Shown: positions 3,506 through 20,590 of the stretch, piece by piece
Position numbering within the stretch: position 1 is the first letter of the stretch
Layout: every line of letters starts with the position of its first letter
Notes under the pieces: model-generated
The model's input: only the letters and a program-made list of their open reading frames with translations
Told to the model about the DNA's origin: nothing
Databases searched by the model: none
Made by a program: the position numbers and the translations under genes
Assembly (NCBI GenBank): GCA_021534775.1
Contig: GCA_021534775.1_4809.2
Origin: a phage
Direction: 5' to 3' (one strand)
DNA length: 21,206 nucleotides

Positions 3506-4366
3506 ATGTCTAAGAAAGAAACTACCGAAGTTGCAGTGAAAAACACCCAGATGTCCGCTATGGCTGATTTTGTCGACATGACCGATTTTGGCGCTGGTTT
3601 TGAAGGTGCCGATGCCGATGCGTATGCCATTCCTTTTATCGTCGTGCTGCAGAAGATGTCTCCTATGGTCGACGAAGATGATCCAAAACACGTTCCTGGC
3701 GCAAAAGCTGGCATGCTTTACAACACCGTTACTGGTGAGTTGTATGACGGTAAGAAAGGCGTGCAGATCATCCCTTGCGCATTCAAACGCACCTTCATTC
3801 TTTGGGGCGGTCGCGAGTCCGACGATAAAGGCTTTAAAGGTGAATTTACCAAAGAGCACGTTGATGCAGAAGTCGCGGCAGGCCGCGCTGTTGAGATCAA
3901 TGGTAAAGTGTTTGTGCCGGACGAAAACGGAAAAGTGCACGAGAAGAAATCACCTTACTACGCAGATACACGTAACCACTTCGTGATTCTGTTAAACGAA
4001 GAAACGGGTGAATTTGGCAGTGCCATGCTGTCTTTGACTTCTTCGATGATCAAGCCGTCTCGTATGCTGATGACCGCGCTGCAGCAGAAGAAAGTTCAGA
4101 CTCCGCAAGGTCTGAAAACGCCGCCGACCTTTATGAACATCGTTCGCATGGGTACTGCATCCCAGTCCAAAGACGGCAACACCTGGTCCGTTCTGAAGTT
4201 TGAGCTGGAAGGTCTGGTGCAGGACAAAGGCCTGTACGAAGTCGCCAAGGCATTCCACAACGATGTGGTTGGCGGCAACGTTAACATCGACCGCAGCAAG
4301 CAAGAAGAAGCAAGCGGTGCCGCTGGTCCTGTCGATGCGACTCCGACCGACGCAGAAGAGTTTTAA
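3506..4366 (+). CDS. putative ssDNA-binding protein (acidic C-terminal tail ending in Phe, T7 gp2.5-like architecture); function unproven
   Basis: 286-aa ORF with an AGGAAAA ribosome-binding site. The C-terminus is ...SGAAGPVDATPTDAEEF; an acidic tail with a terminal aromatic residue is a hallmark of phage and bacterial SSBs. The assignment is by architecture only; no OB-fold motif was verified. Confidence 0.45.
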   Translation: MSKKETTEVAVKNTQMSAMADFVDMTDFGAGFEGADADAYAIPFIVVLQKMSPMVDEDDPKHVPGAKAGMLYNTVTGELYDGKKGVQIIPCAFKRTFILWGGRESDDKGFKGEFTKEHVDAEVAAGRAVEINGKVFVPDENGKVHEKKSPYYADTRNHFVILLNEETGEFGSAMLSLTSSMIKPSRMLMTALQQKKVQTPQGLKTPPTFMNIVRMGTASQSKDGNTWSVLKFELEGLVQDKGLYEVAKAFHNDVVGGNVNIDRSKQEEASGAAGPVDATPTDAEEF

Positions 4367-4385
4367 TCGACAATCAAATCAACAA

Positions 4386-4410
4386 GGCTGCCGATTGGCG
4401 GCCTTTTATT
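4386..4410 (+). terminator. rho-independent terminator candidate
   Basis: GGCTGCC / GGCGGCC stem (7 bp, one G-U pair) with a 4-nt loop, followed by TTTTATTTAT, 20 nt after the stop of the 3506-4366 ORF. Confidence 0.5.
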
Positions 4411-4423
4411 TATCTGGTGCATC

Positions 4424-4942
4424 ATGATAGAAAGAATTGTACCGCTCCTGAAGATTCTGGCCCTTGTTGGCGCGTTTGCCGCTGGATCATACGTTGAAGA
4501 CCTGCAGCAAACCAACGCATCACTGGTCAAGGATAACCAATATCTGACATCGCTTAATGAGCGTAAGGACAAGATAAATGCACTCGAAGAGCAAATTGCA
4601 TCTTTACAGGTTGAATCGGCATCGGCATATGAGAAAGGTCGCCAGGAAGCGCAACTGGTTGCTGATGACACTATTGCTCGTTACAAGTCTGGGAATATCA
4701 GGCTGCGCGCGCAACTCAGCTGCTCCCGTGAGTTACTCAGGAGCGTGCCCGACTCTGCGACCACTGGACGCCTCTCTATCCCAGAAGGAAACTGTGGACT
4801 ATCAGAAGAAGATGTCAGATTTCTTGTTCAGTTCGCCGCAGAAACAAACCGATTAAAAGAGAAAGTTAATAGCTTGATTGATACTTATAATCAGGCTAAA
4901 ATAAAAATCGATCAATTCAACGCATCAAAGGAAAATAAATGA
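4424..4942 (+). CDS. i-spanin (Rz-like inner-membrane spanin subunit)
   Basis: The translation has an N-terminal transmembrane segment (IVPLLKILALVGAFAAGSYV) followed by a coiled-coil-rich periplasmic region and a segment GNIRLRAQLSCSRELL...RLSIPEGN...VRFLVQFAAETNRLKEK, which resembles the lambda Rz pattern (RRLHIKAVC...). A lipoprotein ORF is embedded in the +1 frame. Confidence 0.8.
   Translation: MIERIVPLLKILALVGAFAAGSYVEDLQQTNASLVKDNQYLTSLNERKDKINALEEQIASLQVESASAYEKGRQEAQLVADDTIARYKSGNIRLRAQLSCSRELLRSVPDSATTGRLSIPEGNCGLSEEDVRFLVQFAAETNRLKEKVNSLIDTYNQAKIKIDQFNASKENK
4629..4856 (+). CDS. o-spanin (Rz1-like outer-membrane lipoprotein), embedded in the +1 frame of the i-spanin gene
   Basis: From the internal ATG at 4629 the translation is MRKVARKRNWLLMTLLLVTSLGISG-C..., i.e. 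a basic n-region, hydrophobic core and a lipobox (I-S-G-C). The mature part is short, contains Pro residues and a second Cys. The track ORF begins at 4578, but the ATG at 4629 gives a canonical lipoprotein signal; the ATG at 4665 is an alternative. Confidence 0.7.
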   Translation: MRKVARKRNWLLMTLLLVTSLGISGCARNSAAPVSYSGACPTLRPLDASLSQKETVDYQKKMSDFLFSSPQKQTD

Positions 4943-5532
4943 ACCAGATTTATGCAAACATTCGCCAGTGGGCTTCTGACCGTAACATCATCCAAGGTTG
5001 CGACATTAAAGACCAATATCCGAAGCTTATCAGCGAGTTTGGGGAGTTAACCGACCACGTTGATCAACTCCATGACCTTGTGTTCTTCGACCCTGAAATT
5101 GGATATGCAGAGCAGGCTATCTGTGACTTGCAGGCCGCAATTAAAGACGACATCGGTGATTGTCTTGTTGTGTTGACCATCCTGGCAGCGCAAAACGGTA
5201 CTGAAATCGAAAACATTAATGGCGGCGGTTGCGCTGATAAAGGCGCTCACCCTCACTCATTTATTCTTCGCCTGGCAAAGACCCTTGGACGGCTTGGTGA
5301 TGCTATTGCTAAGAATCAGACCATGGATATTGACGTTACCATCATGGCCGCAGTCGATTACCTTTCCGGCGTTGCTCATGATTATGGCCTTCGCTTATCC
5401 GACTGTGCGCAAGCGGCCTACGAAGACATCAAGGACCGCAAAGGTGTCATGTACAACGGCACATTCATCAAATCGACTGATCAGGCTTATGCCTATGCAA
5501 TGGAACAAGTAATGAATGAGGGGCGCGCGTGA
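4939..5532 (+). CDS. MazG-like nucleoside triphosphate pyrophosphohydrolase
   Basis: The translation contains LISEFGELTDHV (an E-x-G-E-L type MazG metal-binding helix) and a downstream DDIGDCLVVLTILAAQNGTEIE helix resembling the second MazG motif. The start overlaps the spanin stop (ATGA). Confidence 0.55.
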   Translation: MNQIYANIRQWASDRNIIQGCDIKDQYPKLISEFGELTDHVDQLHDLVFFDPEIGYAEQAICDLQAAIKDDIGDCLVVLTILAAQNGTEIENINGGGCADKGAHPHSFILRLAKTLGRLGDAIAKNQTMDIDVTIMAAVDYLSGVAHDYGLRLSDCAQAAYEDIKDRKGVMYNGTFIKSTDQAYAYAMEQVMNEGRA

Positions 5533-6506
5533 TGGCAGGAGAAATCAAAGCATTAAAGCCAATGAAGGGTTGTCAACGTAAGCAAATCATCGAGCGCGGC
5601 GAAGATGTGCCGCTGCCTTGCGGATTGTCATTCAAGGTCGATGGCATACGTGCAATGGCGTATGACAACTTGCCAATGGGCACTTCCGGCATGGCGCTGC
5701 GCAACATTCAAATCAAAAAAGAGTTTCTCTTTTTGGGTGAACTAATTCACGGACTTGATGGAGAGCTAATCGACGGCAATCCAAATGATAAGAACGTCAT
5801 GCAACAGGCATATACTGCGTGCATGAATACTGATGCAATCACTAACTTTACATGGTGGGTGTTTGATGATTTCAGCGACCCTGATTTGCCTTTCTCTGCT
5901 CGTTATGAGCAGTACAATCGACGTGTTGCTGAAGTCAATCAGCATCTTATTAACCATGGTCGACGCCCATTCCTTCGCGCTCTCGAATATCGAAACATCG
6001 AAAATATGGAACAGTACGCGGCGATGCAAATCGAAGCGGACCAGCTTGGATATGAAGGCTTGTATGGCAAGTCTTGGACGGGCAAATACAAGCATGGCCG
6101 CGCAACGCCCAAGTCACGTGATGTATGGAAGGACAAGCCGTGGACGGATGAAGAGGGATTGATCATAGACTTCGTTGAGATGATGGAGAATAACAACGAA
6201 GCATTCATTGACGAATTGGGTCGCACCAAGCGTTCAAAAGAAGCTGAAGGTTTAGTTGCGAAAGGATACCTTGGCTCATTCGTAGTTGTCAATCCTAAGT
6301 ATGTGGATGAGAAAGGTGAAATGATTCCTTTCCGCGTCTCGGCTGGTTCGATGCCTATGGCAGAACGTAAAATGCTTTGGGAAAATCGCGAGGACTATCG
6401 CAATAAATACCTGACGTATAAATTCTTTAACTTTGGCATTGTCGATGTGCCGCGCTCTGCTTTGTATAAGTGCTTCCGTGATATTACCGATATGGAGTAT
6501 TTTTAA
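5532..6506 (+). CDS. ATP-dependent DNA ligase (covalent nucleotidyltransferase superfamily)
   Basis: The translation shows motif I KVDGIR (KxDGxR), motif III LDGELIDG, motif IV EGLYGK and a WKDK motif V-like element. The ATG at 5532 overlaps the MazG stop and is preceded by GAGGGG; the track ORF starts at the GTG at 5529. RNA ligase or capping enzyme cannot be fully excluded without alignment. Confidence 0.7.
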   Translation: MAGEIKALKPMKGCQRKQIIERGEDVPLPCGLSFKVDGIRAMAYDNLPMGTSGMALRNIQIKKEFLFLGELIHGLDGELIDGNPNDKNVMQQAYTACMNTDAITNFTWWVFDDFSDPDLPFSARYEQYNRRVAEVNQHLINHGRRPFLRALEYRNIENMEQYAAMQIEADQLGYEGLYGKSWTGKYKHGRATPKSRDVWKDKPWTDEEGLIIDFVEMMENNNEAFIDELGRTKRSKEAEGLVAKGYLGSFVVVNPKYVDEKGEMIPFRVSAGSMPMAERKMLWENREDYRNKYLTYKFFNFGIVDVPRSALYKCFRDITDMEYF

Positions 6507-6579
6507 GACACTGGATAAATAATTGGTGCGGATAATCTATCGCGCCGTTTTATAGAATTAAATCTACAGTGTATACATA

Positions 6580-6610
6580 AAGCCGGAAATTCCCGGCTTT
6601 TCTTTTATTT
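6580..6610 (+). terminator. rho-independent terminator candidate
   Basis: GCCGG...CCGGC hairpin (about 6582-6597) followed by TTTTCTTTTATTT, downstream of the ligase stop. Confidence 0.45.
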
Positions 6611-6623
6611 ACCTTTCGCCTTA

Positions 6624-6651
6624 TTTACTTTCAAAACCTTCGGCCTATACT
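6624..6651 (+). promoter_or_regulatory. sigma70-like promoter candidate (TTTACT, 16-nt spacer, TATACT)
   Basis: The hexamers were read from the sequence between the upstream terminator and the ORF at 6683. A ribosome-binding site AAAAGGTGA lies 7 nt upstream of the ATG. The -35 match is weak. Confidence 0.3.
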
Positions 6652-6682
6652 ATTAATATTCGTAATCAAAAGGTGAATTATA

Positions 6683-7225
6683 ATGAAATCGAAAAACTTA
6701 AAGATTGTTTTGATCATCATCATGGCTATGCTGACAGTTTTGTTCTTCACCAAAAGTGCTGCGGCTGAAAGTATGTTTACGCCGCCAAACAGTAATGCAA
6801 AAGTATTAACGCGATATTTTAACAACGGCCAATCGTTCGAATTTTGCTGGAACAAATACGATGTGATAAAGGAAAGGTTTGACAAGGAAAAGATGTGCGT
6901 AATGAATGATCGCGGTCGCCAAGTCGTGTCGTTTGTGTTCGGAATGTCAATTGCAAAAGTTGATGCCCCTGAAATCGTTGTCAGGTATAATACATTGGAC
7001 AGCGGCCTTGTCGACAAGACATACCCTGTTGCAGTAGACAGCAGGACAGGCGGCGCACTCATACTCACTCCAGAAGATAAATCAGATGTCGTTAACATGC
7101 TCATCAACAGCAAAGACGTAATCGTGTTTTATCATGTTGAAGGCGTATCAGACTACCAAATGGCCTACTATCCACTGCCCTTAAGAGATGCTTCAGGTAA
7201 TGTTAAGACACAGGATGTGCGTTGA
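6683..7225 (+). CDS. secreted or periplasmic protein of unknown function (Sec-type signal peptide)
   Basis: The N-terminus MKSKNLKIVLIIIMAMLTVLFFTKSAAA-ES has a basic n-region, a hydrophobic core and an AxA cleavage site. No lipobox. The mature part has two Cys. No recognisable family. Confidence 0.65.
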   Translation: MKSKNLKIVLIIIMAMLTVLFFTKSAAAESMFTPPNSNAKVLTRYFNNGQSFEFCWNKYDVIKERFDKEKMCVMNDRGRQVVSFVFGMSIAKVDAPEIVVRYNTLDSGLVDKTYPVAVDSRTGGALILTPEDKSDVVNMLINSKDVIVFYHVEGVSDYQMAYYPLPLRDASGNVKTQDVR

Positions 7226-7239
7226 CATGGGTGGTAGTT

Positions 7240-7452
7240 ATGCAGAAAGATTTGGAAGAAAACAAAAGGCTGAAAAAGGCTTTAACGTCTCAAATCTTGT
7301 CCCTGTTGGTAAAGCTTGTTGGGGAGTCAATTAGCAACAAGGTGGCACGGGCCGCGATTGTTGGCGTGATTGGCATGGCGGGGTATTACTTCGACTTGCC
7401 AGACATCGATACAAGTTCCGCGCCGCCCGTCCAGGTTGAAGCCGTAAAATAA
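7240..7452 (+). CDS. small membrane protein (70 aa), function unknown; possible lysis or exclusion component
   Basis: The ATG at 7240 is preceded by GGTGG; the track ORF starts at a TTG at 7222. The translation has a charged N-terminus, hydrophobic segments ILSLLVKLVG and AAIVGVIGMAGYYF, and an acidic C-terminus. Confidence 0.45.
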   Translation: MQKDLEENKRLKKALTSQILSLLVKLVGESISNKVARAAIVGVIGMAGYYFDLPDIDTSSAPPVQVEAVK

Positions 7453-7454
7453 AC

Positions 7455-7477
7455 AAAGGCCCATATGGGCCTTTTTC
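7455..7477. terminator. bidirectional rho-independent terminator between convergent transcription units
   Basis: Symmetric hairpin AAAGGCCC-ATAT-GGGCCTTT with an A-tract on one side and a T-tract on the other, lying exactly between the stop of the + ORF (7452) and the stop of the - strand endolysin gene (7478). Confidence 0.6.
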
Positions 7478-8122
7478 TTACATAACTGCTAGTGCGTCCT
7501 TGTAACGCTTCCGTCGCAAATCCCCATGGTTAGCCGTATTCGGCGCGGCCCCGTTAATCCGCTTAACGGTTGAATCAAAATTTCCTGCATCAGCAAGAGG
7601 AATACAGCCGCTATTCTTAAAGAACCATGCCGCGCTGTCAGCGATGTATTTTGGCTCAGTCAAAATTTCAGGATTATTCAAGGCGTCATATCCTGATTGC
7701 TTTGAATAATCTGCATAGTTATCCTTTCCAGTCAGCTGAATGGCACCACGGCCACGGTACTTCCAACCGTCGCCTGATGCTACCGAACCGTTGCCCATGC
7801 GGTTTGCATATGTATTATTGGCGATTTCCATTGGTTTACGGGCAATCGACAACGCCAAGGAGTTGGGTGCACCGCCGAAAAGACCGCTGGCGCTGTAACG
7901 GCTAGGCCATGTATTAGCAAGACCTTGAGCGGAATAATTCAAGTTTTCCACAAATGTCTTCAGACTGCCTGTTTCCACTCCTACGTTTGCAAGCAACGCT
8001 GCGATGGCATTCTTGCTTTTGATTCCGTAGTGCTCACAAGCCTGCTTGAAAGGGTCCACCCATTTCTCTGCGACATCCATGCTGCATCCGGTCCCTTTAG
8101 ATATTACGTTTGCATTAATCAT
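7478..8122 (-). CDS. endolysin, glycoside hydrolase family 19 (chitinase-like) type
   Basis: The translation contains YRGRGAIQLTGKDNY and YIADSAAWFFKNSG, matching the two GH19 signature regions, plus LLANVGVETGSL. No signal peptide. The start could alternatively be the internal ATG at 8080. Confidence 0.8.
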   Translation of the reverse strand: MINANVISKGTGCSMDVAEKWVDPFKQACEHYGIKSKNAIAALLANVGVETGSLKTFVENLNYSAQGLANTWPSRYSASGLFGGAPNSLALSIARKPMEIANNTYANRMGNGSVASGDGWKYRGRGAIQLTGKDNYADYSKQSGYDALNNPEILTEPKYIADSAAWFFKNSGCIPLADAGNFDSTVKRINGAAPNTANHGDLRRKRYKDALAVM

Positions 8123-8130
8123 AAATCACC

Positions 8131-9918
8131 TTATGCGCTTCTGTACCAGCCGTTCAAGACTACATATCGCGGCAGGGTTGAAACAGCCGTTGGAACGGAC
8201 TGCCCTGCGTCGCCAGTGTTACCGACCACATCGTGAGTGTGAGCGGGAAGGGTATAGCTGTGGCTGTGATTGCCAGCGTAATTTATATTCAACCCATGGG
8301 TGTGTGACCCAGAAGATTGGATATTGTGGACGTGGTTGCCGTTAGTCGAGGTGTTGTATTTGTAGTTATCCCAGTCGCCGCCCTTTCGACTGCCGAAGTT
8401 GTTGTGCGTATTGTCATACACGCCATACCGCGCATCATTCGTATTCGCTTCACCCCAGCTACTGTCATGGTGGTGGTTTCCTGCTGAATCCATTCCGTGC
8501 ACGTGAGCACCGTTTTGACTGGTATCGCCTGTGTGGTTATGGTTTCCTGCATCTCCAGTGGTATTTGACCATGGACCACTTTGGCGCGTAGTAATGTTCA
8601 CGCTGTGATTGTGGAGAGGAAGCATCGCGGCGGTAAGGGTGACAGAGTCCGCGCCGCCTGTGGCAAGACCGTTTCTTGCCGTGCCTGATGTTCTGATGAC
8701 CATGTTATCAGGCAATCTGGTCCACACTTGTCCATAAGCGCCAAGCTTGGTGTTTGGGTTGGTTCCATTAGTCAAGAATCGAGTCTCACCGACTTCGAAT
8801 ACATCACCCATAGTGATCAACTTAGAAGCCAAATCATCGAGTTGACGCTTTGTCACAAACTGTTGCGGCTCACTGGCATCAACACCGATTTGCGCCGCGC
8901 CGAATGCTTGAAGAAGACGCCATACTGTGCCGTCATAAATAATGGTGAAAGGCAAAAGACCGACGATTGACCCTGCTGGCAACTCGCCGCCGTCGAATCC
9001 AAGGACGGCAACCTTGTTTGCACCAATGGTCACGGTAACAGGTCCGGTAGTCGTTACATCATTGACGATTGTAAGGCGACTACCTGCTGACGGCGGCCAT
9101 GAATAACCTGCCGGAACGGTAAGGATTATGTCTTGTGCGCCTTTACCTGATGCAAGATTCGGCGTGCCAATTTGAACGTCTTGAACAGTGGCATTCTGAA
9201 TCCAAGCGCTCCAAGCACCAGACGTATAAGAGCGGGTGAAAACATATCCGTTCATTGACGTGTATTGCTGCAGGGCGAAAGTCTGCGCATCGACCTGCCA
9301 AGCGCAAACCTGGAGACGACCTGCAACCTTCGTCGCGCCAACCGCATTCGGGATGTTAGAGCAAAGAGCAGCAACGGCATTGGATTGGATGACAATGGTT
9401 GTGGAAGTCGTAATGTTATCAAAGTCCACAAAGTTTGAAATCAGTCCGCGAACAAAATACGGGTTTTGCGCATCGCCGCCAGCAGGCATAGGAATATACT
9501 TTCGCGCTTCGCTAGGCAGCGTCAATTCCTGCCAAGATTCAGTTTCGCCGTTTGCTGGGACGGCGCTGGTGTTGCCGTCAACCACGCTCTGGAAGATGCG
9601 CCACTCAGGCGCTGAAGGAGTTCCAGAGTTGCTTACTACGATGGCATTTTTCGGGTATCCATCCGGCTTCAAGTCAGACGAGAAATACTGTTGAGCACCG
9701 TGGTCCTGGATGAACATAAGGTTGTCGGTGATCAAATTCAGCAACCAGTTCATCGACTCGCGCTCAACCGCTTTCGCGGCGACGTTTCCGGCTTCCAGAG
9801 CAAGTGCATAGTCAGGGGTGTAGCCGCGCTGGAAGTTCACATAACCGCTTGGACTTGCATCCGGCACCACGGATACATCACCGCTTTGCGCGAAAGGTCT
9901 GTTAATAAGTGTTGGCAT
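8131..9918 (-). CDS. tail fibre protein with C-terminal HxH repeat region
   Basis: The C-terminal third is rich in H-x-H repeats (NHNHTGD, AHVHGMD, NHHHDS, NHVHNIQ, SHTHGLN, NHSHSY, AHTHDV), as in metal-binding tail-fibre tips of T4-type fibres. The start was moved to the ATG at 9918 (GAGG 7 nt upstream), just past the upstream gene stop; the track start at 9975 would overlap the upstream gene by 47 nt. Confidence 0.75.
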   Translation of the reverse strand: MPTLINRPFAQSGDVSVVPDASPSGYVNFQRGYTPDYALALEAGNVAAKAVERESMNWLLNLITDNLMFIQDHGAQQYFSSDLKPDGYPKNAIVVSNSGTPSAPEWRIFQSVVDGNTSAVPANGETESWQELTLPSEARKYIPMPAGGDAQNPYFVRGLISNFVDFDNITTSTTIVIQSNAVAALCSNIPNAVGATKVAGRLQVCAWQVDAQTFALQQYTSMNGYVFTRSYTSGAWSAWIQNATVQDVQIGTPNLASGKGAQDIILTVPAGYSWPPSAGSRLTIVNDVTTTGPVTVTIGANKVAVLGFDGGELPAGSIVGLLPFTIIYDGTVWRLLQAFGAAQIGVDASEPQQFVTKRQLDDLASKLITMGDVFEVGETRFLTNGTNPNTKLGAYGQVWTRLPDNMVIRTSGTARNGLATGGADSVTLTAAMLPLHNHSVNITTRQSGPWSNTTGDAGNHNHTGDTSQNGAHVHGMDSAGNHHHDSSWGEANTNDARYGVYDNTHNNFGSRKGGDWDNYKYNTSTNGNHVHNIQSSGSHTHGLNINYAGNHSHSYTLPAHTHDVVGNTGDAGQSVPTAVSTLPRYVVLNGWYRSA

Positions 9919-9928
9919 TGCCGTTCCT

Positions 9929-12667
9929 CTACACGATGTATTTAATTTTTGATAAAAGGGTTGACGCCCAATCACCAGTTAAGTCAGTTATGTTCATGCT
10001 TGAAACATAACCACCAGCAGCACTTCTCGGAAAGTTTACTGTTGCTACAACATCACCATTAGAAGCAATCAATTGAACTCCAGTGGCAAGTGATCCTGGG
10101 TTTTTGATGTATATAGAAGTCGCAGTTTTCTTTGCGAAATCTTCGCTTGTTGAAATTGCAAGCGCATTCATCGTATTGCCAGACACAAGCATCAAGCTCA
10201 GAATATCAAGTTCAAGAGTTGTACCAACTTCGGTCGGCAAGTCTTTCCCTGATATCAATCCGATGCTGATGCCGCCTGTTGATCCATCCCAGTTAGCTCC
10301 TGCCACAATCTCAGCGGCAAGGTCAATCTCAATGCGCTGTAAATCACCAACACCGATGTTATAGAATTTAGGGATATAGCCGCCCATTCCATCCGGTACA
10401 GTTACAAAAAGCTTCTGCCCGTTAACCGTGTTGTTTTTGACTATCGCAATGAATGATAAAGGACCAGTAAGCGTTCCAGTATATTTTGTTGCGAGAACGG
10501 CGCGTGCATAACCGGACGTTGGCACAGTCCCTATTGTAGCGGAAAGCTTGAATGATGGGAACTGGTTGGGCGCTCCGCTTATTGGCGTTGCCGTCACTGT
10601 GTTTGCACCATCCTTGACGATATTACCAAATGAAGTTCCATCATTCGGCTGAGTATAGCGCCAATAGTTTGTGATGGCTGCACGCGGAATTTCACGACCA
10701 AAGTCATCGCGAGAAGCCTTTGAGATTGAATAGTCGTTGACAAGAGCGCCATCGACGACTTGGTTCACACCTTTCAAAGATTCAAGCTGGCGTATGACAC
10801 CGTTGAAGTTGTTAAGCGGCCATTCGTTAATGCCGCCAACTCTGATGATGCCGTCAGTATTAATCCACGCAACACCTTCCGTTTCAAATCCTACTCGCGT
10901 GTCCGTTATGTCGCTGACAGTCAAATCAATATCAGATAAGTCTGCGACTTCTTGGTAAAGCTGCCAACGTATTCCGGCATTTGCTGGCAAGAATCCTTCA
11001 TTCCTGTCGCCAACTAGCGTCTTAAAGTTGTCTGACAGGTTGTTGGCGAAATAAGGTCCGATGACGTATTCCATGTAATAGTCGGCGGTCGGCGGCGGCG
11101 GTACTCCATCCAGCCTGCTAACGTTCCATGAGCATCTGATTCCATCAGTCTCTGCAATCAATGTAGCGTTCCCTGGGTACGGGTAGCCGCCGATTGAGCC
11201 AGAGTATGCAAGTGATGAGCCAGGTTGCATGAATGACTCGCCAACCACACCGTTTCTTGTCGTCAGCGGTCCGTTTGCACAGGAGATGTTATTGAGCGTT
11301 CCCGCCGTTACAGACAGGATTGCTGTTCCGTCAGAAGGAGGGTTTTGCGTTCCATAAAAATAAGGCTCAGGCCCATTTGGATTCTGAACAGGGTCGCAGA
11401 CGCAAATCGAGTATCCAAATAAAAGAGCATCAGACCCTTCAGGCAATTCACGAGTTTGAGTTGATCCAGCGGCAGTCGCCTTCAACTCTATTGAGAAGCT
11501 GGTACTTACTCCAGAATCAGCGGTTGCCGTCTGCTCTACAATCCAGATTCGATACCAATCGCCGCCGATTGCTTTTATGCCACCACGGCTTGATTCCCTT
11601 CTTACTCCATCGAATTTACCTGTGATGAAATAGCTCAAGGACGAGTCCAAGTTGAACTGTCCAGTGACGGGGTCAAACAGCTTTCCATTACTCGATGCAT
11701 CGCTGTTCTCTGTTACGGAAACAGAAGCCACGTTTTCAGAAAGCACTTTTATGTAGAAGCTATAGCAAACGTTGACACCAGCCTGAGAAGGAAGCGCAAT
11801 CGATTGGGCGCTTGGATTATTGGCCAAAGAATACACAGGCTCGCCGCTGGAAGCGGTCTTAATGACCCGTACTGCGTTGGCGAAATTCTCTATGGCCTCT
11901 CCTGGGTAATCACCACACAACTGTCCATAGTAATCAGGCCCACCATACTGTCTGGTGTCGCCGCCGACAAGACCTGTGCCGGAACCATTCCCCCATGAGT
12001 ACCAATCTGGGTGAGCCATACGTGACACAGTTCCTGACACTCCGCTTGTGGTCAGTCCGGCGTTGTTGCCATGGCTTAAAAGTATCTGCTTATAATCATG
12101 CTGAATCTCAGTTGACCCCTGCCAGTCGTACAGAAGGAATGAGCCATTGGTTGATTCAGACGAAGACACCGCGCCTTGAGTATTGTCGGTCACATATGCG
12201 TAGCGTGATGAAGAGTAATCCCAAGCCTCTCCACGGTTGAAAATCCATTTAAGCATGCGGTTGATACTTTCGATGCGGCCATCACTTGTGAGCGTCAGAT
12301 AACGAAGCTTAAGAAGTATGCGCGCTTCTTCGATATTCTTTACAACCTTACCGCCAGCACCAAAGAAGTTGCCGCCGATGTTGTCGGCACCTTCAAAGTT
12401 GTCGCGCGTCGGTCCGAACGCCCAGTTGTGCTCATAATTGCTTAAGTCCACAAAGTCTCTTGGTATGCAAAGAATGTCGCACCAAATATAAATGCCCATT
12501 GCATCACAAGTGTCAATGTTAAAAATGTTATTGTACCAGTCAGTCCAAAACTGATCTTGGTATCTTTCATACCAGTCACTTTTCTTTTGCACCAAAGATG
12601 TGATGTTTGGCGCATTGTTCTGCATCCACTTAAGGTTTTGCAACAGGTTTGTGTCAAACTTTTGCAT
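9929..12667 (-). CDS. large tail or baseplate structural protein (912 aa), possible receptor-binding component
   Basis: Long ORF in the tail module, immediately upstream of the fibre gene, with an AGGA ribosome-binding site. Gly/Ser/Thr/Asn-rich composition typical of fibre or baseplate proteins. No specific motif recognised. Confidence 0.55.
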   Translation of the reverse strand: MQKFDTNLLQNLKWMQNNAPNITSLVQKKSDWYERYQDQFWTDWYNNIFNIDTCDAMGIYIWCDILCIPRDFVDLSNYEHNWAFGPTRDNFEGADNIGGNFFGAGGKVVKNIEEARILLKLRYLTLTSDGRIESINRMLKWIFNRGEAWDYSSSRYAYVTDNTQGAVSSSESTNGSFLLYDWQGSTEIQHDYKQILLSHGNNAGLTTSGVSGTVSRMAHPDWYSWGNGSGTGLVGGDTRQYGGPDYYGQLCGDYPGEAIENFANAVRVIKTASSGEPVYSLANNPSAQSIALPSQAGVNVCYSFYIKVLSENVASVSVTENSDASSNGKLFDPVTGQFNLDSSLSYFITGKFDGVRRESSRGGIKAIGGDWYRIWIVEQTATADSGVSTSFSIELKATAAGSTQTRELPEGSDALLFGYSICVCDPVQNPNGPEPYFYGTQNPPSDGTAILSVTAGTLNNISCANGPLTTRNGVVGESFMQPGSSLAYSGSIGGYPYPGNATLIAETDGIRCSWNVSRLDGVPPPPTADYYMEYVIGPYFANNLSDNFKTLVGDRNEGFLPANAGIRWQLYQEVADLSDIDLTVSDITDTRVGFETEGVAWINTDGIIRVGGINEWPLNNFNGVIRQLESLKGVNQVVDGALVNDYSISKASRDDFGREIPRAAITNYWRYTQPNDGTSFGNIVKDGANTVTATPISGAPNQFPSFKLSATIGTVPTSGYARAVLATKYTGTLTGPLSFIAIVKNNTVNGQKLFVTVPDGMGGYIPKFYNIGVGDLQRIEIDLAAEIVAGANWDGSTGGISIGLISGKDLPTEVGTTLELDILSLMLVSGNTMNALAISTSEDFAKKTATSIYIKNPGSLATGVQLIASNGDVVATVNFPRSAAGGYVSSMNITDLTGDWASTLLSKIKYIV

Positions 12668-14727: not shown

Positions 14728-15249
14728 TTAGCGATTTGACTTTGATTCTTTAATGGCAGCTTCGTTTGAGTAGGCTTCATTAAGTGATTTTGCTATTAGT
14801 CCATCAAACATAGCGAATGCATCACGCAATGAATAATATTCTTCCAATTCTTTTAACGAAGCAAGACCATTGTTTATTAGGCTTGCAACCATCGGCTCAA
14901 GATAATTAGGCTCTACGGTCGGAACGTCAGCCAAGAATCTATTTGGAATCTTAGTACCTTTCCAATCGCTGAGGAATCCAAAATTGTGCTTCTTTACCGC
15001 TTCCATTAGAACTTTCAATACAAGGTTGGGCGGCAAGTGATTTGGCACACTTTTCACTTCTTCACTTATTGCTTTCTCAGAGTTTAACCTGACTTTAGTT
15101 CCGTCATATTTGATAACATGACATTCACTTAATAATTCAAGTGGAGTTAATATGCTTATCGCATCAACCATTTCAAACGCATCTATTGCGCTGAATTGAT
15201 GTATTTCATAAGTGACTCCAAACAGATCAATTACTTTATTCTTTCTCAT
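14728..15249 (-). CDS. hypothetical tail-module protein (173 aa)
   Basis: ATG-initiated ORF immediately after the upstream gene stop. No motif recognised. Confidence 0.5.
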   Translation of the reverse strand: MRKNKVIDLFGVTYEIHQFSAIDAFEMVDAISILTPLELLSECHVIKYDGTKVRLNSEKAISEEVKSVPNHLPPNLVLKVLMEAVKKHNFGFLSDWKGTKIPNRFLADVPTVEPNYLEPMVASLINNGLASLKELEEYYSLRDAFAMFDGLIAKSLNEAYSNEAAIKESKSNR

Positions 15250-18730: not shown

Positions 18731-19291
18731 TTATATTCCTACTGTTGATTTTATTTTATTATATAACGAACTCACAGTTGTAGTCAAACTGACTGGTTCT
18801 TTAATAGCAACACCATTTGATGATTCGTCTGCAGATTGTTTAGGGTCGAAGCTTCCTTGGATGCTAAATGACGTTTGCTCGAAAGTTATTACTATTGAGA
18901 CTCCATTCAAGTTTTCTTCTGACTGGGTTATTTCAACGTCGGACATCGACATTTTACTGGCAATGATGCTTCGAGAAGTTATTGAAAATGTGACTTCGTC
19001 ATCATCAAATGAATTTATGATATTTTCAATTGTAGACTGGTCATTGCAAATTACGTTTAACGCCATATGGGCTGGCATTACAACCTTTGCCGCCTGTAAA
19101 TTGCTTACTGATGACGTGCTTGATACTTCGATAACCTGCATGGCTGTACCAGCAAGAGGGAATTGAGTTGTTTCTGCTGGGGATGTTATTTCTGCAGAAA
19201 CAGGTGAAAGCCTTGTCCAGACAGGAAGACCTGTTGACTCATTCGTTATGGTCAAAGATTGACCAGAAAGCAGAATCGAAACGAAGTCCAT
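18731..19291 (-). CDS. hypothetical virion protein (186 aa), candidate tail tube or major tail protein
   Basis: Ser/Thr-rich ORF whose start overlaps the upstream stop by 1 nt. The role is inferred from size and position. Confidence 0.45.
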   Translation of the reverse strand: MDFVSILLSGQSLTITNESTGLPVWTRLSPVSAEITSPAETTQFPLAGTAMQVIEVSSTSSVSNLQAAKVVMPAHMALNVICNDQSTIENIINSFDDDEVTFSITSRSIIASKMSMSDVEITQSEENLNGVSIVITFEQTSFSIQGSFDPKQSADESSNGVAIKEPVSLTTTVSSLYNKIKSTVGI

Positions 19292-20323: not shown

Positions 20324-20590
20324 TTACTCCGCAGATGCAGATTTAACTGCAGCAAGAATTTCATCCTTATAAGAAATACCCTTGATGTCGATGCCATTTT
20401 CTTTGGCATAAGACTTCAATTCTGAAACGCTCATGGAATCAAAATCGAGTTTTTGTTCAACGGACTTTTCTTCGACCTGCTCTTTGATTTCTGTAACAGG
20501 CTCAACCTTCTTATTAAACAGCTCTGATGCGTCTTCAAATTTTTCGCCAAATTTCATGACGCCATTTGCAAAATGAATTACTTGTGCCAT
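20324..20590 (-). CDS. small acidic protein with C-terminal HeH / Rho-N-like helix-hairpin motif
   Basis: The C-terminus MSVSELKSYAKENGIDIKGISYKDEILAAVK matches the L-x-x-LK-x-x-AK-x-x-GI-x-x-G-x-x-K-x-E-L pattern of HeH / Rho N-terminal-like domains. Confidence 0.45.
   Translation of the reverse strand: MAQVIHFANGVMKFGEKFEDASELFNKKVEPVTEIKEQVEEKSVEQKLDFDSMSVSELKSYAKENGIDIKGISYKDEILAAVKSASAE

Follow-up and report, generated by a model that had tools for sequence, protein, structure and literature searches.

The closest described relative of one of the two genes considered here is PA1-LRP ('lysis-related protein', ORF13) of the Pantoea phage PA1 (Kylevirus). Expressed alone, PA1-LRP modestly inhibits the growth of E. 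coli and raises beta-galactosidase leakage, and when co-expressed or fused with the PA1 endolysin it results in more cell killing than either protein alone (PMC11538084). The hydrophobic segment of PA1-LRP suffices for this effect when fused to the endolysin (40.6% cell death), and TMHMM detects a hydrophobic region in the protein and no transmembrane domain (PMC11538084). We analysed a stretch of phage DNA of 21,206 nucleotides (GenBank assembly GCA_021534775.1, contig GCA_021534775.1_4809.2; the whole stretch is referred to as the window) that encodes two adjacent open reading frames (ORFs), ORF-A (180 amino acids) and ORF-B (70 amino acids), next to a convergent endolysin gene. Homology and gene position identify ORF-B as an orthologue of PA1-LRP, and it is a new member of a family that was functionally described once, in 2024. 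In the literature searched we found no description of the ORF-A/ORF-B pair, of its conservation or of its link to the holin question in PB1-like phages.

We tentatively interpret the pair as a lysis-associated unit that consists of a holin-like protein (ORF-B) and a periplasmic partner (ORF-A), a reading that we hold, taken as a whole, to fall just short of probable. ORF-B would act on the membrane as a small protein with a cytoplasmic, basic N-terminus; its amphipathic helix would rest on the inner membrane, and its hydrophobic helix, short and rich in Gly, would insert into it. Accumulating ORF-B would permeabilise the inner membrane in a holin-like manner and allow the signal-less endolysin to reach the cell wall, after which disruption of the outer membrane would fall to the spanins, whose genes lie 2.3 kb upstream. 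ORF-A would be exported via Sec, cleaved after AAA and folded into a periplasmic beta-sandwich, probably with a Cys-Cys disulfide. Its gene invariably precedes that of ORF-B, at a distance of 9-55 nt, and from this we infer that it takes part in the same process. Acting in the periplasm, it could for instance bind the envelope or the Pro-rich C-terminal tail of ORF-B, and may tune lysis timing as an antiholin does. Any specific role for ORF-A is doubtful.

The ORF-A/ORF-B unit, its distribution and boundaries

ORF-B is the nearest neighbour of the endolysin gene, in convergent orientation, in every genus examined and across three endolysin families. The endolysin opposite the pair may be a GH19 enzyme, a GH108 enzyme with a PG_binding_3 domain (in the metagenomic locus L010) or a 150-amino-acid enzyme for which no Pfam match is recorded (L009 and L011). 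Among close relatives the endolysin has been swapped between families while the flanking genes are constant (L009 6803-7255, L010 6849-7400, L011 6822-7277). The family of the endolysin thus changes while the pair stays, which ties the pair to a position and a process and not to one enzyme.

The stretch from 6400 to 7600 is 92-98% identical to 29 phage records, all of the genus Wifcevirus (myoviruses of E. coli and Shigella), including vB_EcoM_WFC, ECML-117, Mansfield and Bas98-101 of the BASEL collection. Using tblastn, ORF-A was found in 29/29 Wifcevirus records and in the Pantoea phages Kyle and PA1 (Kylevirus, 35-38% identity), and ORF-B in the Wifcevirus and Kylevirus records and in about 289 records of Pbunavirus (PB1-like Pseudomonas phages). 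A structure search against viral models located a further pair in the Serratia phage MTx (Myosmarvirus), where CPT_MTx_059 (169 amino acids) and CPT_MTx_058 (69 amino acids) lie between the ligase and a convergent endolysin. The former is an ORF-A homologue (hhalign probability 93%, E-value 2.6e-7) and the latter matches phrog_5165 (E-value 3e-12). Only about a dozen relatives of ORF-A, each on a phage-like contig, came out of two wider searches, a word-indexed one over 5.8 billion proteins and a full HMMER scan of 1.84 billion representatives; four of these contigs are metagenomic and have the same junction (L009-L012). A match in these searches to P0011, a Big-like repeat protein, was spurious.

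The gene order helicase, DUF7307, Pam3_Gp34, a slot of variable content, MazG, ligase, ORF-A, ORF-B, bidirectional terminator, convergent endolysin and tail fibre is shared by Wifcevirus (Mansfield, Bas101), Kylevirus (Kyle), Myosmarvirus (MTx) and L009-L012. ORF-A is restricted to lineages that infect Escherichia, Shigella, Pantoea and Serratia; Pbunavirus lacks it. The Pbunavirus F8 has the same order minus ORF-A: its ORF-B homologue, ORF047 (phrog_5165), is in place at the same junction, with the bidirectional terminator and a convergent GH19 endolysin, whereas a 280-bp non-coding gap replaces ORF-A ahead of it, and the C-terminal tail of ORF047 is longer and charged. Eight of nine relatives with both genes have an ORF-A/ORF-B gap of 9-15 nt that includes a Shine-Dalgarno sequence, and the gap in MTx is 55 nt. 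We read ORF-A and ORF-B as a conserved two-gene transcription unit that ends the rightward replication/lysis block of PB1-like myoviruses infecting Enterobacterales.

An ORF-B match in the 107-kb Pseudomonas phage WP1 was rejected as an independent occurrence, as it lies in a Pbunavirus-like region with fragmented gene calls. In that region (PP596839.1, 1-7686) the MazG, ligase and tail genes are split into many short coding sequences, which suggests frameshift errors or a chimeric assembly.

The features of the window around the unit are:

4424-4942, + strand: i-spanin gene, which contains the o-spanin gene at 4578-4856 (lipobox LGISGC); both are further lysis genes, encoded on the strand of the unit
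4939-5532, + strand: MazG-like gene
5529-6506, + strand: ATP-dependent DNA ligase
6524-6553, + strand: weak terminator-like hairpin, the first after the ligase (stem 6524-6547 followed by TTTTAT; free energy -10.3 kcal/mol, z -1.8)
6579-6610, + strand: intrinsic terminator closing the ligase operon (stem 6579-6600 followed by TTCTTTTATTT; free energy -12.4 kcal/mol, z -4.3)
6624-6651, + strand: candidate sigma-70-like promoter (-35 TTTACT, 16-nt spacer, -10 TATACT; 9/12 match to the consensus)
6670-6675, + strand: putative Shine-Dalgarno sequence AAGGTG for ORF-A, read from the sequence; a ribosome-binding site is annotated in Mansfield
6683-7225, + strand: ORF-A, 180 amino acids, comprising a signal peptide (6683-6766, cleavage predicted at AAA|E) and a predicted mature beta-sandwich of 152 amino acids at 6767-7222
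7229-7234, + strand: Shine-Dalgarno sequence GGGTGG for ORF-B, within the 14-nt gap past the ORF-A stop
7240-7452, + strand: ORF-B, 70 amino acids, orthologue of PA1-LRP and of F8 ORF047
7445-7480, both strands: symmetric bidirectional terminator common to ORF-B and the endolysin gene (stem AAAGGCCCATATGGGCCTTT at 7455-7474; free energy -13.2 on the + strand and -14.7 on the - strand)
7478-8122, - strand: convergent GH19 endolysin, without a signal or signal-anchor-release (SAR) sequence
8131-9975, - strand: tail fibre

A preliminary description of this stretch had reported a hairpin with a T-tract near 6582-6610, a symmetric bidirectional terminator and a convergent endolysin, and all three are borne out. 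The terminator at 6579-6610 was annotated independently at the same place in Mansfield by TransTermHP, the bidirectional one is annotated on both strands in Mansfield and F8, and the endolysin matches Pfam GH19 with 27.7 bits (cut-off 25.5). The TTTACT/TATACT pair is present as described, and both hexamers are identical in Mansfield and Bas101, where the spacer differs; at the equivalent position Kyle has TTTTCA-16-TATAAT. However, sites of this grade are not above chance by count (7 observed and 6.2 expected in shuffled sequence), and the site can only be called promoter-like from its sequence. These features support the view that ORF-A and ORF-B are a unit of their own, bounded by terminators and with a promoter-like site at the front. 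Farther upstream, a strong terminator hairpin (4384-4409, free energy -15.9, z -4.8) lies directly ahead of the i-spanin start. No promoter is obvious downstream of the hairpin, so that expression of the spanins, MazG and ligase may require read-through.

The impression that the stretch is more AT-rich than the flanking genes holds for the intergenic region 6507-6682 (GC content 0.335) and for the signal-peptide-coding part of ORF-A only; the two genes otherwise match their neighbours. ORF-A has a GC content of 0.424, a third-codon-position GC content (GC3) of 0.483 and a codon-adaptation-like index of 0.779, and the genes of the window have 0.458 +/- 0.036, 0.477 and 0.788; the GC content of ORF-B is 0.49. 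Baseplate/tail genes on the - strand (14728-15249, 18731-19291 and 20324-20590) are more AT-rich than ORF-A, with GC contents of 0.37-0.39 and GC3 of 0.32-0.36. The ratios of nonsynonymous to synonymous substitution rates relative to Mansfield are 0.12 for ORF-A, 0.03 for ORF-B and 0.03-0.07 for neighbouring genes, and by these ratios both are real genes under purifying selection.

The preliminary description had taken the unit for a moron, and the accessory units of this kind known from lambdoid prophages do resemble it in being terminator-bounded and in having a promoter-like site. In contrast to morons, the unit has a typical composition and a non-sporadic presence, occupies a conserved core junction and belongs to a virulent phage. 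Its composition and codon usage are indistinguishable from those of its neighbours, and the cassette occurs in every enterobacterial relative examined (all 29 Wifcevirus records, Kylevirus, Myosmarvirus and L009-L012). Judged by the refuting conditions set out in the preliminary description, the moron reading fails. A related proposal is that the pair is a moron-like accessory unit that protects the infected cell, with periplasmic ORF-A and membrane-located ORF-B excluding superinfecting phages or blocking lysis from without, in the manner of T4 Sp and Imm. In its favour are the promoter-like site and flanking terminators, the predicted export of ORF-A, the lineage-specific occurrence of ORF-A (absent from the Pseudomonas-infecting branch) and the finding that neither protein was detected by mass spectrometry of the virion or lysate of vB_Eco4M-7 or ECML-117. 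The suggested likeness to T4 Sp (Spackle) and Imm did not extend to similarity in sequence or fold, and we consider a protective function quite unlikely. The evidence points instead to the other possibility raised in the preliminary description, a holin-accessory role in view of the convergent endolysin.

ORF-B and the PA1-LRP family

The orthology of ORF-B and PA1-LRP involves homology over the whole core (about 43% identity; 70 and 73 amino acids, respectively), and PA1-LRP likewise sits between an ORF-A homologue and a convergent GH19 endolysin. In phage PA1, the primer published for PA1-LRP maps precisely onto the homologue of ORF-B. PA1-LRP differs from ORF-B in genus and host and in a much more basic N-terminus (RRRRR). 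ORF-B matches phrog_5165 (function unknown; E-value 5e-8), its sole family match in Pfam, PHROGs, NCBIfam and PADLOC, and it has both the syntenic position and the conserved core of the PA1-LRP/phrog_5165 family (LxxxLxxLLVxLxGExxKDKxxRxxxIGxxxxxGxY). No match was found in PDB sequence profiles.

ORF-B comprises a charged N-terminus, an amphipathic helix, an E-S-x-x-N-K loop, a Gly-rich hydrophobic helix (AAIVGVIGMAGYYF) and an acidic, Pro-rich tail. We aligned nine homologues from five lineages, which show a similar layout. The N-terminus is charged and usually basic (+1 to +7), and strongly so in Kyle, PA1 and F8. The amphipathic helix has a hydrophobic moment of 0.32-0.52 and is followed by an invariant G-E, a K-D-K/R loop and an invariant R. 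The hydrophobic helix has a small residue at every third position (IGxxGxxGYY) and leads into an acidic, Pro-rich tail with a charge of -2 to 0. An orientation of ORF-B with the N-terminus inside fits this distribution of charge. An alternative TTG start at 7222, which would give an ORF-B of 76 amino acids or a dual start, was rejected: the extension corresponds to the Shine-Dalgarno region and is not conserved.

ORF-A, its predicted export and fold

The Sec signal peptide with an AxA site that had been noted in the 180-amino-acid ORF is confirmed by a rule-based check, which asks for a positive n-region, a hydrophobic h-region of 7-20 residues and small residues at -3 and -1. Its n-region contains K2, K4 and K7 (net +3), followed by an uncharged core of 16 residues (I8-T23) and the cleavage site A26-A-A28|E29. 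The Sec type I pattern of a positive n-region, a 16-19-residue uncharged core and an AxA-type site is kept in 12/12 ORF-A homologues, with the site a few residues ahead of the conserved motif MFxPPN, while the signal region itself is poorly conserved (column identity of 0.41 vs 0.65 in the mature part). No lipobox was identified in the signal region. These patterns support the prediction that ORF-A carries a Sec-type signal peptide.

The mature domain is confidently predicted to be a beta-sandwich. The AlphaFold 2 model, built from 11 sequences, has about ten strands and one helix, with a predicted local distance difference test score of 91 and a predicted template modelling score of 0.85. Two cysteines, Cys55 and Cys72, are conserved without exception in Wifcevirus, Kylevirus and the metagenomic relatives, as would fit a disulfide formed in the periplasm. 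Aromatic and acidic side chains abound among the invariant residues (MFxPPN, RYNTxDxG, PED, YYPxP). The folds closest to the model are those of periplasmic IalB (PDB 3dtd) and of a Vibrio flagellar-motor ring component (PDB 8z5n). However, the identity of ORF-A to IalB (COG5342) and to the 8z5n component is 3-8%, Pfam IalB (PF06776) has no match in the ORF-A family at E-values up to 10, and Foldseek found no match to the model in the PDB. ORF-A has no family match in Pfam, PHROGs, NCBIfam or PADLOC, and comparison with PDB sequence profiles yielded chance matches only, to snake-venom lectins (E-value 0.4 or worse). ORF-A is an uncharacterised orphan exported family with about a dozen known sequences. 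Its function rests on context: ORF-A is exported, coupled to ORF-B, independent of the endolysin family and present in enterobacterial lineages only.

ORF-A might instead be an envelope-directed factor for enterobacterial hosts that acts independently of ORF-B on envelope breakdown or host takeover, with their adjacency reflecting shared timing only. Possible targets would be murein, the Lpp-murein link, lipopolysaccharide or O-antigen assembly, and the Tol-Pal system. Consistent with this, ORF-A is found only in phages of Escherichia, Shigella, Pantoea and Serratia, its invariant residues have the aromatic and acidic character described above, and its closest folds belong to envelope proteins; an IalB domain is also present in the Tol-Pal-associated protein RgsG. 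We consider such an independent factor unlikely.

The holin-like reading of ORF-B and comparison with known systems

Several observations support the interpretation of the pair as a lysis-associated unit. ORF-B keeps its place beside the endolysin despite the change in endolysin family, and the endolysin of the window has no export signal. No holin is annotated in the Mansfield record, which was carefully curated by a group that annotates lysis genes, and the authors of the MTx genome state that the holin and spanin were not identified (MTx announcement). ORF-B combines charged termini (a basic N-terminus and an acidic C-terminal tail) with a gene adjacent to the endolysin, as expected of a holin.

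Other observations weigh on the opposite side. ORF-B has no match to a holin family in Pfam, PHROGs or NCBIfam. The ORF described as encoding a hydrophobic membrane protein is present, but over 19 residues its Kyte-Doolittle value peaks at 1.34, short of the usual threshold of 1.6. Most homologues are also below 1.6, with values that range from less than 1.3 (L009, F8) up to 1.82 (in MTx only). The hydrophobic helix, which is short and Gly-rich, is not clearly a textbook transmembrane domain. ORF-B is encoded convergent to the endolysin and among replication genes. The effects of PA1-LRP are mild (a difference of 0.16 in optical density at 600 nm after 24 h), derive from over-expression and fusion constructs in E. 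coli, and were accompanied by a two-hybrid test that gave no interaction between PA1-LRP and the endolysin (PMC11538084). This work is the sole experimental evidence for the ORF-B family and is weak; it does agree with the genomic evidence. Pbunavirus does without ORF-A, and nothing physically links ORF-A to ORF-B.

The low hydrophobicity also bears on the possibility that ORF-B is a small, basic, cytoplasmic regulator that forms a helical hairpin, and not a membrane protein, the toxicity of PA1-LRP then being an artefact of over-expression. The sub-threshold hydrophobicity, the strongly basic N-termini of the Kyle, PA1 and F8 proteins and the mild toxicity reported for PA1-LRP are in line with this. 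However, the second helix of ORF-B has a conserved apolar face with spaced Gly residues and reaches the transmembrane range in MTx, the hydrophobic segment led to cell death when fused to the endolysin, and ORF-B stays beside whichever endolysin family is present. A purely cytoplasmic role is very unlikely.

Competing holin candidates also count against a holin-like ORF-B. All 29 Wifcevirus records encode a 71-amino-acid protein that resembles class II holins in having two clear transmembrane segments and a charged C-terminus. Its gene is far from the endolysin (Mansfield MK903282, 8797-9012, - strand) and is hypothetical in all annotations, and none was found outside Wifcevirus among the 50,697 phage records searched. 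A 201-amino-acid gp050-like membrane protein (phrog_1544), with a Gly-zipper, a coiled coil and a transmembrane domain, is present in Pbunavirus, Kylevirus, MTx and L010. It has been termed a probable holin (Ceyssens 2009), and its match to GTA_holin_3TM is sub-threshold (E-value 0.018). A third case is L012, which has a phrog_1356 holin beside the endolysin and yet retains ORF-A and ORF-B; this 68-amino-acid protein (4200-4406, - strand; DUF7940) has two transmembrane segments and is encoded immediately downstream of the GH19 endolysin. A 145-amino-acid gp010-like protein is labelled holin in some Pbunavirus records. In all, Pbunavirus records and papers give the name 'holin' to three different proteins, the Mansfield and MTx annotations contain none, and we found no experimental work on a Wifcevirus or Pbunavirus holin in the literature searched. 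A holin-like role for ORF-B is the best-supported reading, and is not settled.

The 201-amino-acid protein occupies the slot between Pam3_Gp34 and MazG in Pbunavirus, Kylevirus, MTx and L010. The same slot contains the i-spanin and o-spanin in Wifcevirus, L009 and L011, and is empty in L012. The positions compared were 4424-4942 in the window, L005 3563-4168, L003 3512-4117 and L014 12826-13431. This alternative occupancy suggests either lysis-gene swapping or that the 201-amino-acid protein is a spanin analogue rather than a holin. The primers published for 'PA1-LVP' (PMC11538084) delimit a fragment that begins with the gp050-like gene and ends with MazG (L004 3621-4811, phage PA1). The construct thus covers two genes, and its negative result is uninformative on the gp050-like protein.

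As the sole small hydrophobic protein beside the endolysin in every genus examined, ORF-B is a concrete and cheap holin candidate. The PB1-like myoviruses include Pbunavirus, listed among the Pseudomonas phages most used in personalised therapy (BASEL paper), and the unit is a well-defined, testable lead in this therapy-relevant group, although a phage lysis module is an unsurprising kind of finding. Should ORF-A set the time of lysis or protect the envelope, phage lysis would gain a new periplasmic player; failing both, what has been found amounts to two conserved hypothetical genes.

A more far-reaching possibility, which we also regard as unlikely, is that the two proteins are an unrecognised lysis-timing pair. 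ORF-B would then be a holin-like hairpin of a non-canonical type, without a full transmembrane domain, and would serve as the universal membrane-lesion protein of all PB1-like phages, Pbunavirus with its therapeutic use among them, and ORF-A would be a periplasmic gate of IalB fold added in the enterobacterial lineages. An infection cycle of 3-5 minutes has been reported for Wifcevirus, and if such a lysis-timing pair exists it could underlie this very short cycle.

In mechanism, and not in membership, ORF-B and ORF-A may be compared with the T4 holin T and its periplasmic antiholin RI; in both cases a membrane lysis protein comes with a small protein, exported to the periplasm, that could set the time of lysis. 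The two pairs share no similarity in sequence or fold. T has a large globular periplasmic domain, whereas the periplasmic tail of ORF-B would have at most about 18 residues, and RI has a SAR domain, whereas ORF-A has a predicted cleavable signal peptide.

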